A stretch of DNA of 64,000 bases, from the NCBI RefSeq assembly GCF_003334355.1, contig NZ_QOWP01000003.1, one strand, 5' to 3'. Below are positions 2,029 to 27,061 of the stretch, piece by piece. The notes under the pieces were generated by a model. That model ran no database searches and was not told the origin of the DNA. It was given only the letters and a program-made list of their open reading frames with translations. Source of the DNA: Escherichia coli (GTDB lineage: Bacteria; Pseudomonadota; Gammaproteobacteria; Enterobacterales; Enterobacteriaceae). The position numbers and the translations under genes were made by a program. Within the stretch, counting starts at the first letter, position 1, and every line of letters starts with the position of its first letter.

Positions 2029-3868
2029 CTTTCAGGGCTTTTATCGCCGGATGTAAATCAACAGATTGTAACAGACCACCCGGCGGCGTTTTCACAAGTT
2101 GCGGACATAACCGTTCCACGTCCGCCAGCAGGGTTATGGCCTGTGCCATTGACCACTGCGCATGTTCGCTCATCAGATTTCGTGCAATCCACTGCGCAAT
2201 ATTGCCAGGTTCGAATACGGACTGCTTCGCCAGGTAGCCTATCAGTTCAGGAATCAAGATTTGTAAATTTTGTTGGCGTAAGGGTAAAGGCACGGCCCTG
2301 ATGGTCACATGCTGTGCATCTGACTGGAAATCAATACCCAATTCCGCCAGGGCAGACTGCGCTTTTTCTAATGCCGATTTTTCTTCGCCAGAAACTTTTA
2401 GCCGCAACGGAATAAGCAGCGGCTGAGCGCAAACTGGCGCTTCACCCGGCGTCAGTTGTACCTGACGCAGCCAACGTTCTGCCACTGGCAAGGCTAAAAG
2501 TGAAATGTTGCCGTCGCGCTCCAGCAACGCACAGTCGGAATGGACGATAGTCAGTACCCGACCAAAACTCTGACTGTTCGCCGCAAGTGCAGGTTCCTGC
2601 GGTTCCGGCGCTTTTAATTTTTGCATCGGCGCGGGCGTTTGCAAAAGCTGGCGATACACTTCACCTTGCTGTTTCTGGTAGCCTGGCTGCGCATTCGGCC
2701 AGGGGGCAGCCGGACGACTGCCTGATGCTGGCGCAGGAGTGTAGCGCGGAGCTACCGGCTCACGAGCTGCCGGTTCTGCAAAGTGATTGCGCCCCGCCGC
2801 CACGCGGTTTTCCGGAATGGAACGCGGTGCAGGTTGGGGTTCATCGTCCAGCGGTAGCGGCGTTTCCAGTTGCTGTTGTAGCACGCTCAGCACGCCCTGA
2901 TAGATAAAATCATGCACCAGACGCGACTGATGGAAACGCACTTCGTGTTTGGCGGGGTGCACGTTGACGTCCACCTGATGCGGATCGATCTCCAGATACA
3001 GCACAAATGCCGGTTGCTGATCGGCCCCCAGTTTGTCTTCGCAGGCCTGGCGGATCGCGTGATTGATCAGGCGATCGCGCATCATGCGACCGTTCACGTA
3101 GCAATACTGAATTTCTGCCAGTGCAGGCGTGGTGTGATTTGGATCGGCCACCCAGCCGCGTAGCGTGAGATCGCCGTGTTGCCATTCAATCGCCAGCGCT
3201 TGTTCAAGAAAAGCGGTGCCGCAAATCGCGCCTAAGCGCCGTTCTTTTTGCCCGCCTTCCGGCACTGCGCGGTACTGACGCACAATTTTACCGTTATGCG
3301 ACAGGTTGATCGTGACGTCGAAACGCGCCAGCGCAATGCGGCGGATGATCTCATCAATGTGGTTAAATTCGGTTTTCTCGGTGCGCAGGAATTTGCGCCG
3401 CGCCGGGGTGTTGTAGAACAGATCCAGCACCTCCAGCGTCGTCCCCACAGGATGCGCCGCCGGTTTTACCGTCACGTTCATATCGCGCCCTTCGGCATAG
3501 GCCTGCCAGGCTTCCTGCTGTTCTGCGGTGCGTGAAGTGAGCATCAGGCGGGAAACCGAACTGATACTCGCCAGCGCCTCACCGCGAAAGCCCAGGCTGA
3601 TAATGGCTTCGAGATCGTCCAGAGAGGCGATTTTACTGGTGGCATGACGAGCCAGCGCCAGCGCCAGCTCATCTTTTTTGATACCGCAGCCGTTATCACG
3701 AATGCGGATAAGTTTCGCCCCACCGCGTTCGATATCAATATCGATACGCGTCGCACCTGCATCGAGGCTGTTTTCCACTAGTTCTTTGACTACCGACGCA
3801 GGTCGCTCGACCACCTCACCTGCGGCAATCTGGTTCGCCAGTTGTGGCGGTAAGACCTGAATTGGCAT
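2021..3868 (-). CDS. mutL: DNA mismatch repair protein MutL
   Basis: ORF track 616 aa [39 protein letters not shown]...; start trimmed to second Met to give 615 aa; overlaps miaA by 8 nt. Confidence 0.95.
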
Positions 3869-5233: not shown

Positions 5234-7212
<1,979 letters not shown>

Positions 7213-21923: not shown

Positions 21924-23479
<1,556 letters not shown>

Positions 23480-23567
23480 AATTTCATCGGGTCCGAATTT
23501 TCGGACCTTTTCTGCGCTTTTCCTTGCTGTCATCTACACTTAGAAAAAAACCAGTAAGGAAACATTT

Positions 23568-24101
23568 ATGCGCCTGCTCCCTCTCGTTGCCGCAGCGACA
23601 GCTGCATTTCTGGTCGTTGCCTGCAGTTCTCCTACGCCGCCGCGTGGCGTGACAGTAGTGAATAATTTCGACGCTAAACGCTATCTCGGTACCTGGTATG
23701 AGATTGCCCGTTTTGATCACCGTTTTGAACGTGGACTGGAAAAAGTCACCGCAACATACAGTCTGCGTGATGACGGCGGCCTGAATGTCATCAATAAAGG
23801 CTATAACCCTGACAGAGAAATGTGGCAGCAGAGTGAAGGGAAAGCGTACTTTACCGGCGCACCAACACGCGCTGCGCTGAAAGTGTCATTCTTTGGTCCT
23901 TTCTATGGCGGTTATAACGTCATTGCACTTGATCGGGAATACCGCCATGCGCTGGTTTGCGGCCCGGACCGCGACTACCTGTGGATACTCTCCCGCACGC
24001 CAACCATTTCTGACGAAGTGAAACAGGAGATGCTGGCAGTCGCGACCCGGGAAGGGTTTGATGTCAGTAAGTTTATTTGGGTACAGCAGCCCGGTAGTTA
24101 G
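23568..24101 (+). CDS. blc: Outer-membrane lipocalin Blc
   Basis: ORF track 177 aa [21 protein letters not shown] (lipoprotein signal) ...[10 protein letters not shown] lipocalin motif. Confidence 0.93.
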
Positions 24102-24415
24102 TGAGTGCTGAGTTTCAGACCAATAATCCCCAATACGATTAACGCCAGACTCGCCAGGCGCATCGGGTTAGCGGACTCACCGAGCAGTACAATGCCGGTG
24201 ATAGCCGCGCCGACTGCGCCAATACCCGTCCACACGGCATAAGCCGTCCCTACTGGTAACGATTTCATCGCCCAGGCAAGTAGCGCCATACTGACAATCA
24301 TCGCCGTCACGGTAATAACACTCGGCGTCAAACGACTAAAGCCGTGGGTATATTTCAGGCCAACGGCCCATACCACTTCCAGCAGACCAGCAATAACTAA
24401 GATAATCCAGGACAT
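24098..24415 (-). CDS. gdx: SMR-family guanidinium exporter Gdx (SugE), 105 aa
   Basis: ORF track 24098-24565 trimmed to [26 protein letters not shown]; four-TM SMR protein. Confidence 0.93.
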
Positions 24416-24431
24416 ATCAGGCTCCGGAGAA

Positions 24432-24479
24432 TTGGGGCCGTCCCCGGTGAAAAGACGCGTTTGCAGGTCGTCCTGCAAA
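24432..24479 (-). ncRNA. Guanidine-II riboswitch (mini-ykkC) in the gdx/sugE leader
   Basis: Minus-strand transcript has two GC-rich hairpins with ACGR tetraloops: UUUGCAGG-ACGA-CCUGCAAA (24460-24479) and GGGG-ACGG-CCCC (24434-24445), the second immediately upstream of the GGAG Shine-Dalgarno. Confidence 0.7.
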
Positions 24480-24596
24480 GCTGATGGTTGAACGGATATT
24501 TTGCCAGGTGGCAGGGGAATTTCAACTATTACCTTAGTGACTATCGCAGAAAAAACAAACGGCACGACACAGCTGTCGTACCGTTATTGCTTATTG

Positions 24597-24743
24597 CTAT
24601 TGCTGCGCTTTCGTTGCTGCGCCAGAAATCGCGTTACCGCCATCAGAAATGTCTTCACCAACGCCACGCGTGGTGTTGCAGGCAGTTAATACTGTTGAAA
24701 GCACCAGAACAGAAAAGATCGCTGCAATTGTCTTCTTCACCAT
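24597..24743 (-). CDS. ecnB: Entericidin B lipoprotein, 48 aa (not in ORF track)
   Basis: Own translation of reverse complement: [48 protein letters not shown]; lipobox LTAC. Confidence 0.85.
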
Positions 24744-24853
24744 AACGTCTTCCTTTTAGGTAATGTTATTTATGTTTGCCTATAGCAAATTAATAATAGA
24801 CAACATCGCCAAAAATGACGGAAATCTGATGATTTTTCGGAAGAGAAGAAAAA

Positions 24854-24979
24854 TTAGCTGGCAGCGCGAGAGATGGAGTTGCCGAGATGTTTGATGTCTT
24901 CGCCGAAACCGCGAGCGGTGTTACAGCCCGTGAGCAGCGTGCTGGCAAGCAAAACAAGAACGATAAGGCGTTTCATCAT
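24854..24979 (-). CDS. ecnA: Entericidin A lipoprotein, 41 aa (not in ORF track)
   Basis: Own translation of reverse complement: [41 protein letters not shown]; lipobox LTGC. Confidence 0.85.
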
Positions 24980-25030
24980 CTCTGACCTGAATAAGTGATG
25001 GTGCAGCCTGCAGGCCGCACCACAACCGCA

Positions 25031-25597
25031 TTACTTCACGCGAGAGACGTATTCACCAGAGCGGGTATCCACTTTGATGACTTCGCCGATTTGTACGAAC
25101 AGCGGAACCTTAACCACAGCGCCAGTAGACAGGGTAGCCGGTTTGCCGCCAGTACCTGCGGTATCACCTTTCAGGCCCGGATCGGTATCAACGATTTCCA
25201 GTTCAACGAAGTTCGGCGGAGTAACGGAGATCGGCTGACCATTCCACAGAGTTACGATACACTCTGCCTGATCCAGCAGCCATTTAGCGTTATCGCCAAT
25301 TGCTTTTGCATCAGCAGACAGCTGCTCGAAAGTTTCGTTGTTCATGAAGTGCCAGAACTCACCGTCGTTGTACAGGTAAGTCAGGTTCATATCGACAACA
25401 TCAGCGCCTTCAGCGGAATCAGTAGATTTGAAGGTTTTTTCTACGCGAGTACCGGTCAGCAGACGACGCAGTTTAACGCGAGCAAATGCCTGGCCTTTAC
25501 CCGGTTTTACGAATTCACTCGCTTCAACCGCGTAAGGTTCGCCGTCTAACATGATTTTAAGACCAGCACGAAAATCGTTGCTATAGTACGTTGCCAT
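25031..25597 (-). CDS. efp: Translation elongation factor P
   Basis: ORF track 188 aa [46 protein letters not shown] (Lys34 in KPGKG loop). Confidence 0.97.
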
Positions 25598-25638
25598 AAG
25601 GCCCTCTGAAATTTGTTAATTGGTAGCTAAGCCACAAA

Positions 25639-26667
25639 ATGGCGCATATTGTAACCCTAAATACCCCATCCAGAGAAGATTGGTTAACGCAACTTGCCGA
25701 TGTTGTGACCGATCCTGATGAACTTCTGCGTCTTTTGAATATAGACGCGGACGAAAAACTGTTGGCCGGACGCAGCGCCAAAAAGCTGTTTGCCCTGCGT
25801 GTGCCCCGCTCATTTATCGATCGCATGGAGAAAGGCAATCCGGACGATCCTCTTTTGCGTCAGGTACTTACCTCGCAAGATGAGTTTGTCGTCGCGTCCG
25901 GATTCTCCACCGACCCACTGGAAGAACAGCACAGCGTAGTGCCTGGTTTGTTGCATAAATACCACAACCGGGCGCTTTTGCTGGTCAAAGGCGGCTGCGC
26001 GGTAAATTGCCGCTATTGCTTCCGTCGCCACTTCCCCTATGCCGAAAATCAGGGCAACAAGCGTAACTGGCAGACTGCACTTGAGTATGTTGCTGCGCAT
26101 CCGGAACTGGACGAGATGATTTTCTCTGGCGGCGATCCGCTGATGGCGAAAGATCACGAGCTGGACTGGTTGCTCACACAACTGGAAGCCATCCCGCATA
26201 TCAAACGTCTGCGGATTCACAGCCGTCTGCCGATTGTGATCCCGGCACGCATCACAGATGCGCTGGTTGAACGCTTTTCACATTCTACGCTGCAAATCTT
26301 GCTGGTGAATCACATCAACCATGCCAATGAGATAGATGAAACATTCCGTCAGGCGATGGCTAAGTTGCGCCGGGTAGGCGTTACTTTGCTGAACCAGAGC
26401 GTTCTGTTACGTGATGTGAACGATAACGCACAAACGCTGGCAAACCTGAGTAATGCGTTGTTCGATGCCGGCGTGATGCCGTATTACCTGCATGTGCTCG
26501 ATAAAGTACAGGGCGCGGCGCATTTTATGGTGAGTGATGACGAAGCACGGCAGATTATGCGTGAGTTGCTGACATTGGTGTCGGGATATCTGGTGCCGAA
26601 ACTGGCGCGAGAAATTGGCGGCGAACCCAGCAAAACGCCGCTGGATCTCCAGCTACGCCAGCAGTAA
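25639..26667 (+). CDS. epmB: EF-P lysine 2,3-aminomutase EpmB (YjeK)
   Basis: ORF track 342 aa; radical-SAM CxxxCxxC motif (CAVNCRYCFRRH); divergent from efp with only 41 bp between them. Confidence 0.95.
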   Translation: MAHIVTLNTPSREDWLTQLADVVTDPDELLRLLNIDADEKLLAGRSAKKLFALRVPRSFIDRMEKGNPDDPLLRQVLTSQDEFVVASGFSTDPLEEQHSVVPGLLHKYHNRALLLVKGGCAVNCRYCFRRHFPYAENQGNKRNWQTALEYVAAHPELDEMIFSGGDPLMAKDHELDWLLTQLEAIPHIKRLRIHSRLPIVIPARITDALVERFSHSTLQILLVNHINHANEIDETFRQAMAKLRRVGVTLLNQSVLLRDVNDNAQTLANLSNALFDAGVMPYYLHVLDKVQGAAHFMVSDDEARQIMRELLTLVSGYLVPKLAREIGGEPSKTPLDLQLRQQ

Positions 26668-26698
26668 CTGATTAAACAGGGAAGTTAAACATTAAAAT

Positions 26699-26800
<102 letters not shown>

Positions 26801-27061
26801 GAGCAACAAACGCAAGTACCGCAACCTGTCATTAAACTGAGAAATTTAATCTTTGCCCGTTGCATAACCTTTAATTATTCATATGCATTGCTGTTGTTAC
26901 TTTTTATATAGCTAACACCAATAATTAACCTTTCTTTTCTGTTTATATAGAGTGAGCACGGCTATTTATGTTATTTTAACAACTATTACTACCAAGCCCA
27001 TTTATCTGGCTTATAAATTAAAATTAATTATTTAATTGAGAAATGGTTAGGGAGAACCTAC

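Follow-up and report, generated by a model that had tools for sequence, protein, structure and literature searches.

Entericidin genes ecnA and ecnB in a 64,000-nucleotide window of Escherichia coli: a known prolipoprotein pair, its expression anatomy and its unsettled toxin/antidote function

The function attributed to the entericidins goes back to Bishop et al. (1998; J Mol Biol 280:583), who, as cited in PMC5389655, PMC7296081 and PMC5105897, reported that overproduction of EcnB resulted in bacteriolysis and that ecnA in cis protected against it. In the outline of their 1998 model, expression is driven by sigma-S in stationary phase at high osmolarity and repressed by EnvZ/OmpR; excess EcnB would destabilise the envelope and cause lysis, and EcnA would counteract it. 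The label "lipoprotein toxin / antitoxin" has spread to thousands of genomes from that one overexpression study. The EcnB toxin label has already been questioned in print (PMC7296081), and few small proteins of E. coli are picked up by mass spectrometry as consistently as EcnB (PMC12529367). The locus was described in 1998, all RefSeq genomes of E. coli carry its annotation, and nothing about the sequence described here is in itself new.

The window, that is, the whole stretch of 64,000 nucleotides of E. coli DNA that was analysed, contained two intact minus-strand open reading frames (ORF) with ATG starts, at 24854-24979 (41 amino acids) and at 24597-24743 (48 amino acids). A first-pass annotation had placed two genes of 41 and 48 codons at these positions and on this strand, in exact agreement with the ORF listing, and re-translation revealed neither a frameshift nor a premature stop. 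The 41-amino acid protein was 100% identical to EcnA of K-12 MG1655 (b4410), and the 48-amino acid protein was 100% identical to EcnB (b4411). The former matched the NCBIfam equivalog NF007319, "lipoprotein antitoxin entericidin A" (114.9 bits, cut-off 86, E 1e-33), and the latter matched NF007487, "lipoprotein toxin entericidin B" (121.9 bits, cut-off 94, E 6e-36). Because the reciprocal cross-hits fell under the cut-offs (46.5 and 44.5 bits), the A and B assignments were unambiguous. Pfam PF08085 (Entericidin EcnA/B), a conserved motif of 20 residues in the mature peptide, aligned along its whole length, from position 1 to position 20, with EcnB (E 5.9e-07) and EcnA (E 7.6e-06). A 701-bp query over the locus was matched in all 5426 of 5426 complete E. 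coli genomes, in many of them with 100% identity, and the RefSeq annotation of the matches read ecnB, ecnA, efp, sugE; a 396-bp query was matched in 5425 of 5426. The entericidin identity proposed in the first-pass annotation was thus borne out by the NCBIfam equivalogs, PF08085, K-12 protein identity and RefSeq annotation, and it is virtually certain that these are the chromosomal ecnA and ecnB genes of E. coli (entericidin A and B prolipoproteins). The reading as a whole, comprising a lipoprotein pair, its expression anatomy and its published function, is held with high confidence. The locus is an ordinary one, already known and annotated, and not a discovery. Both genes were below the 60-amino acid default of the ORF listing. 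A length-filtered ORF track does not show genes of fewer than 50 codons, and two real ones were recovered here from the raw sequence.

Both proteins had the predicted features of lipoprotein precursors, assigned by rule. EcnA started with MMKR, carried the lipobox ...LLTGC and had a predicted signal peptide of residues 1-18 with Cys19 as the lipidation residue; EcnB started with MVKK, carried ...VLTAC and had a predicted signal peptide of residues 1-21 with Cys22 as the lipidation residue. A basic n-region (KR in EcnA, KK in EcnB) was followed by a hydrophobic core and the lipobox, so that both proteins satisfied a PROSITE PS51257-type rule, in accordance with the signal peptides and the lipoboxes LTGC and LTAC described earlier. 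EcnA also had a weak match to Pfam LPAM_1. The pattern used was [LVI][ASTVI][GAS]C with a positive n-region and a hydrophobic h-region, and it was weak alone, as it was passed by 9 of the 242 ATG-initiated ORF of 30-80 amino acids in the window. Because the rule was unspecific, identification of the locus rested on homology and evolution.

The reading in which both ORF are chance intergenic frames with fortuitous lipobox-like motifs draws on that same commonness of lipobox-type patterns (9 of 242), and its probability is negligible. It conflicts with the equivalog E values given above (1e-33 and 6e-36), with syntenic orthologues in other genera at dN/dS far below 1, with the third-codon-position substitutions within E. 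coli ecnA, and with the detection of the EcnB protein by mass spectrometry (PMC12529367). Chance frames were ruled out by homology, synteny and substitution pattern, with no reliance on the lipobox pattern.

Each ecnA and ecnB precursor would be exported by Sec, to judge from its sequence and the general lipoprotein pathway. Lgt would place diacylglycerol on Cys19 of EcnA and Cys22 of EcnB, LspA would remove the signal peptide and Lnt would N-acylate the new N-terminus, giving lipopeptides of 23 (EcnA) and 27 (EcnB) amino acids. The predicted mature peptides were Gly-rich and of low net charge, with a helical hydrophobic moment that was high in EcnA (0.68-0.75) and moderate in EcnB (0.49-0.55). 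Residue +2 was Asn, not Asp, in both. Because Asn at +2 is not the Asp Lol-avoidance signal, sorting to the outer membrane is expected, and the Lol system would carry both mature lipopeptides there; in agreement with this expectation, EcnB homologues have been reported from the outer-membrane vesicles of several genera (PMC7296081). Lipidation of EcnB at Cys22 is a curated UniProt assignment cited in PMC12529367, and top-down mass spectrometry in the same paper detected only a truncated, non-lipidated EcnB fragment. Zero PDB sequences matched EcnB, even at E ≤ 10.

The two genes are clearly paralogues that arose by tandem duplication, and both are under strong purifying selection. Between genera (E. 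coli vs. Salmonella and Klebsiella), dS was about 1 or more, and dN/dS was 0.01-0.05 for ecnB and 0.08-0.24 for ecnA. The core C-N-T-x-R-G-x-G-E-D-I-x-x-x-G-x-x-I-S was invariant in the six proteins compared. Among six E. coli strains, ecnA had 12 variable sites, 11 of them synonymous at third positions and one (T14A) in the signal peptide, and ecnB had a single change, V28I. Within-species diversity was in this respect very uneven (12 variable sites per 126 nt in ecnA and 1 per 147 nt in ecnB, in a small sample of six strains). Synonymous sites of ecnB were unusually quiet within E. coli, and between-genera dS was normal at about 1.3-1.6. A recent sweep, recombination or constraint at the RNA level (MicA pairing, mRNA stability) are possible causes of this quietness.

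The pair lay between sugE/gdx (24098-24415, minus strand) and efp (25031-25597, minus strand), as had been stated in the first-pass annotation; beyond these genes were blc (23568-24101, plus strand) and epmB (25639-26667, plus strand), all four in the same order as in K-12. The genes blc and sugE were convergent, ending at 24101 and 24098, respectively, with 3' ends that overlapped by 4 bp, likewise in K-12. A tandem ecnA-ecnB between efp and sugE/gdx, on the efp strand, was found in the window, K-12, five further E. coli strains, Salmonella and Klebsiella, the order in the latter two genera being efp-ecnA-like-ecnB-...-sugE-blc. In the Salmonella sp. record, ecnB and sugE were separated by an oppositely oriented gene (882-1469 of the record) for a regulator with a LuxR C-terminal-type domain; neither the E. 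coli window nor Klebsiella had this gene, which presumably corresponds to ecnR described in Citrobacter. The same record was labelled as a 453-kb IncHI2A conjugative plasmid and carried chromosomal-type blc, sugE, efp and epmB. A search of a plasmid collection returned 13 ecnAB matches, most of them in records that bore a plasmid label but were very large or of chromosome size, and the two records inspected (Salmonella and Klebsiella) retained the chromosomal neighbours. A mobile or plasmid-borne addiction cassette was considered and rejected, as these 13 matches, two of them inspected, yielded no evidence for it.

Between the stop codon of efp and the start codon of sugE, the window differed from K-12 by four point differences and one 6-bp indel, with both proteins unchanged. 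Two of the point differences were in the ecnA-ecnB spacer, one was 3' of the ecnB terminator, and one was in the sugE riboswitch, in the linker that joins its two stem-loops. The indel was an extra GCAATA unit at the ecnB stop (24599-24604), by which the stop codon was TAG in the window and TAA in K-12. Three near-tandem GCAATA(A) units spanned the ecnB stop codon at 24585-24604 (minus strand), one more than in K-12 and four other E. coli strains. The allele of the window was common: of 40 records taken at even steps through the match ranking, 10 were 100% identical. Insertion sequences were observed at the locus in two strains. In E. coli IAI39, IS1 was inserted between ecnA and ecnB (2772-3469 of its locus) with both ORF intact, and it probably separates ecnB from its promoter region too. 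In E. coli elppa9, IS200C was inserted between ecnB and sugE (1-127 of its locus) with ecnA and ecnB intact.

Other elements were observed around the locus. The gene for the guanidinium exporter of E. coli is known to have a guanidine-II riboswitch. This element (mini-ykkC; Rfam RF01068, 49.3 bits, gathering 32) was present at 24433-24479 (minus strand), directly upstream of the sugE/gdx start at 24415, and a sigma-70-like promoter, TTGAAA-16-(TG)CAAAAT, was located upstream of it at 24498-24525 (minus strand). A terminator-like match at 24479-24460 was the first hairpin of this riboswitch and not a terminator. A longer sugE ORF with GTG at 24565 (155 amino acids) would cross the riboswitch, and of the two starts the annotated one at 24415 (105 amino acids) was the credible one. 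Downstream of epmB, at 26731-26857, there were two sub-threshold matches to Rfam naRNA4 (REP-derived) on opposite strands (43.6 and 23.9 bits, gathering 59.5), most likely an ordinary REP/BIME cluster. The Rfam scan of 23000-27000 placed zero RNA families inside ecnAB, its matches being confined to the riboswitch and the naRNA4 pair.

The spacer between efp and ecnA was 51 bp. It contained a GC-rich hairpin, GGTGCGGCCTGCAGGCTGCACC, at 25000-25021 (minus strand; RNA fold -22.6 kcal/mol) that lacked a U-tract and was not called by the terminator scan; at this position Salmonella and Klebsiella also had a GC hairpin, but with another sequence. This hairpin may act as a stabiliser of the efp 3' end or as a leaky terminator. 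The translation-initiation region of ecnA, CAGGTCAGAG (24980-24989, minus strand), had a weak AGG Shine-Dalgarno-like element before an ATGATG start, and ecnA would be poorly translated. The sigma-70 promoter scan returned nothing upstream of ecnA or ecnB, as would be expected if ecnB has a sigma-S promoter and ecnA is transcribed by read-through. Because no promoter was recognisable at ecnA, it is probably transcribed by read-through from efp. The terminator scan found none after ecnA.

The ecnA-ecnB spacer was 110 bp. A probable sigma-S-type extended -10 of ecnB with C at -13, TGTCTATTAT, was located at 24793-24802 (minus strand). The block GTTGTCTAT(T/G)(A/C)T was conserved in E. coli, Salmonella and Klebsiella; the block GTTGTCTATTAT (24793-24802), common to all three genera, had the form of a sigma-S extended -10. 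RNA polymerase carrying sigma-38 transcribes from the promoter ecnB P, and the sigma-70 enzyme hardly does (PMC5389655); 24793-24802 is probably the -10 of this sigma-S-dependent promoter, the exact assignment following from the numbering in that paper. In the same study, a -10-like motif at about +5 of ecnB P caused sigma-38-dependent promoter-proximal pausing at +17/+18, with a pause region that overlaps an OmpR site (PMC5389655). The -10-like element TGCTATAGG at 24779-24787 (minus strand), at the start of the ecnB transcript, fits this pause signal, which may be mapped onto it. Transcription of ecnB would start at about 24785-24787, where the published numbering fits with no single base fixed.

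Translation of ecnB had a strong Shine-Dalgarno sequence, AAGGAAG (24749-24755, minus strand), read from the sequence at 5 nt before the ATG, and its AAGGA was conserved in Salmonella and Klebsiella. A pairing site for the 5' end of MicA was predicted by RNAduplex at 24712-24742 (minus strand), from the ecnB start codon through about codon 10. The duplex of K-12 MicA nucleotides 1-28 with the ecnB leader had -24.2 kcal/mol, which was reached by none of 300 shuffled targets (mean -13.5). This prediction agrees with the experiment in which MicA lowered E. coli ecnB mRNA and the 5' linear region of MicA was required (PMC3551931). Downstream of the gene, the terminator scan called an intrinsic terminator at 24548-24585 (minus strand), with a 12-bp stem, AACGGTACGACA/TGTCGTGCCGTT, followed by TGTTTTTTCT; the stem-loop spanned 24585-24558, the T-run continued to 24548, and the fold had -24.3 kcal/mol. 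An equivalent ACGGTACG...CGTACCGT hairpin was located 3' of ecnB in Salmonella and Klebsiella. An ecnB expression unit with its own sigma-S-type promoter, a strong ribosome-binding site, a predicted MicA site and its own terminator fits the literature. With regard to co-transcription, ecnA and ecnB were adjacent and on the same strand, but ecnB had its probable own promoter in the spacer, and the two genes were split by IS1 in IAI39.

The words "antidote/toxin" used for the pair in the first-pass annotation are a fair statement of the published model and of current NCBI product names, and the model is not settled. That a strict toxin/antidote mechanism of programmed lysis is the physiological role of ecnAB has somewhat less than an even chance. 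Doubt arises because deletion of ecnA is viable (Keio collection), which a strict antitoxin should not allow (PMC7296081); because the EcnB homologue Atu8019 was without lytic or pore-forming activity (PMC7296081); because EcnB reached up to ~70,000 copies per cell in growing minimal-medium cultures, in a report that does not mention EcnA as detected (PMC12529367); because ecnB was induced without ecnA, in a sigma-S-linked manner, under a LolCDE inhibitor (PMC5105897); and because IS1 split the pair in IAI39. Literature searches found no direct test of toxin and antidote in E. coli at native expression levels.

The main alternative is that ecnAB is not a toxin-antitoxin pair, that its products are abundant, sigma-S-induced lipopeptides of the outer membrane or its vesicles with a structural, adhesive or envelope-stabilising role, and that lysis upon EcnB overproduction is an overexpression artefact of a kind common for small membrane proteins. 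Taken jointly, these statements fall just short of an even chance. They are favoured by the viable ecnA deletion and by the copy number of EcnB, and also by Atu8019 being surface-exposed, present in outer-membrane vesicles, non-lytic and a mediator of docking, and by the many Proteobacteria that have ecnB and lack ecnA (PMC7296081). The lower dN/dS of EcnB (0.01-0.05) than of EcnA (0.08-0.24) is what a housekeeping-like structural protein would show, and Asn at +2 predicts outer-membrane sorting. They are opposed by the lysis upon EcnB overproduction and the protection by ecnA in cis, as Bishop et al. (1998) are cited for, and by a secreted EcnB homologue that inhibited Flavobacterium (Schubiger et al. 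2015, as cited in PMC7296081). The textbook label may be questioned in a more specific form, in which EcnB would be no suicide toxin and would rank among the most abundant small outer-membrane or vesicle lipopeptides (structural, adhesive or envelope-protective) of E. coli in stationary phase and minimal medium, and EcnA would be a weakly expressed paralogue that modulates EcnB and is not its antidote; this form is advanced tentatively, at rather under even odds. If true, it concerns the biology of a known locus, in which EcnB is a very abundant and extremely conserved lipopeptide of 27 residues, and not a new feature of the window.

In a further alternative, which is improbable, EcnB would act mainly outward, cells releasing it in vesicles as a bacteriocin-like lipopeptide that attacks competitors, with EcnA as the immunity factor of the producer. 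A 3-kDa EcnB homologue secreted by Enterobacter C6-6 has been reported to lyse Flavobacterium psychrophilum, as cited in PMC7296081, and EcnB homologues occur in the vesicles of several genera, as summarised there; a small active peptide in tandem with a paralogous partner may also be taken to resemble bacteriocin/immunity pairs. Vesicles enriched in Atu8019, however, did not inhibit bacteria (PMC7296081). The plasmid-collection matches were mostly records that had the chromosomal frd, blc, sugE, efp and epmB or were chromosome-sized, and not dedicated mobile cassettes. Bacteriocin loci are typically variable accessory genes, and ecnAB was in contrast a universal core pair (5425-5426 of 5426 E. 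coli genomes) with nearly invariant proteins.

Compared with known systems, the locus was the same as ecnA/ecnB of K-12 in its proteins, in the order efp-ecnA-ecnB-gdx/sugE-blc-ampC, and in its spacers, ribosome-binding sites, promoter block and terminator, and it differed in the four point differences and in the stop, which in K-12 is TAA without the extra GCAATA unit. As in the window, each member of the PF08085 family in Salmonella, Klebsiella and Agrobacterium (Atu8019) is a small prolipoprotein whose lipobox leads into the motif C-N-T-x-R-G-x-G-E-D-I. Unlike the entericidin model, Atu8019 is a non-lytic vesicle-docking protein (PMC7296081), and many species of the family have an ecnB-like gene alone (PMC7296081), compared with ecnA plus ecnB here. 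The entericidins resemble type I toxins (Hok, Ibs, Ldr, TisB) in their very small size, their hydrophobic or amphipathic character and the envelope damage that follows overproduction. The only Pfam similarity to the Ibs toxin family was non-significant (E = 2.5). Like type I toxin genes, ecnB is repressed by a small RNA, MicA, but MicA is trans-acting, sigma-E-dependent and has many targets, and is not a cognate antitoxin. The antidote of a type I system is an antisense RNA, whereas the antidote proposed in the entericidin model is a paralogous lipoprotein; and type I toxins are helical peptides of the inner membrane, whereas EcnA and EcnB are predicted to be exported, lipidated lipoproteins.
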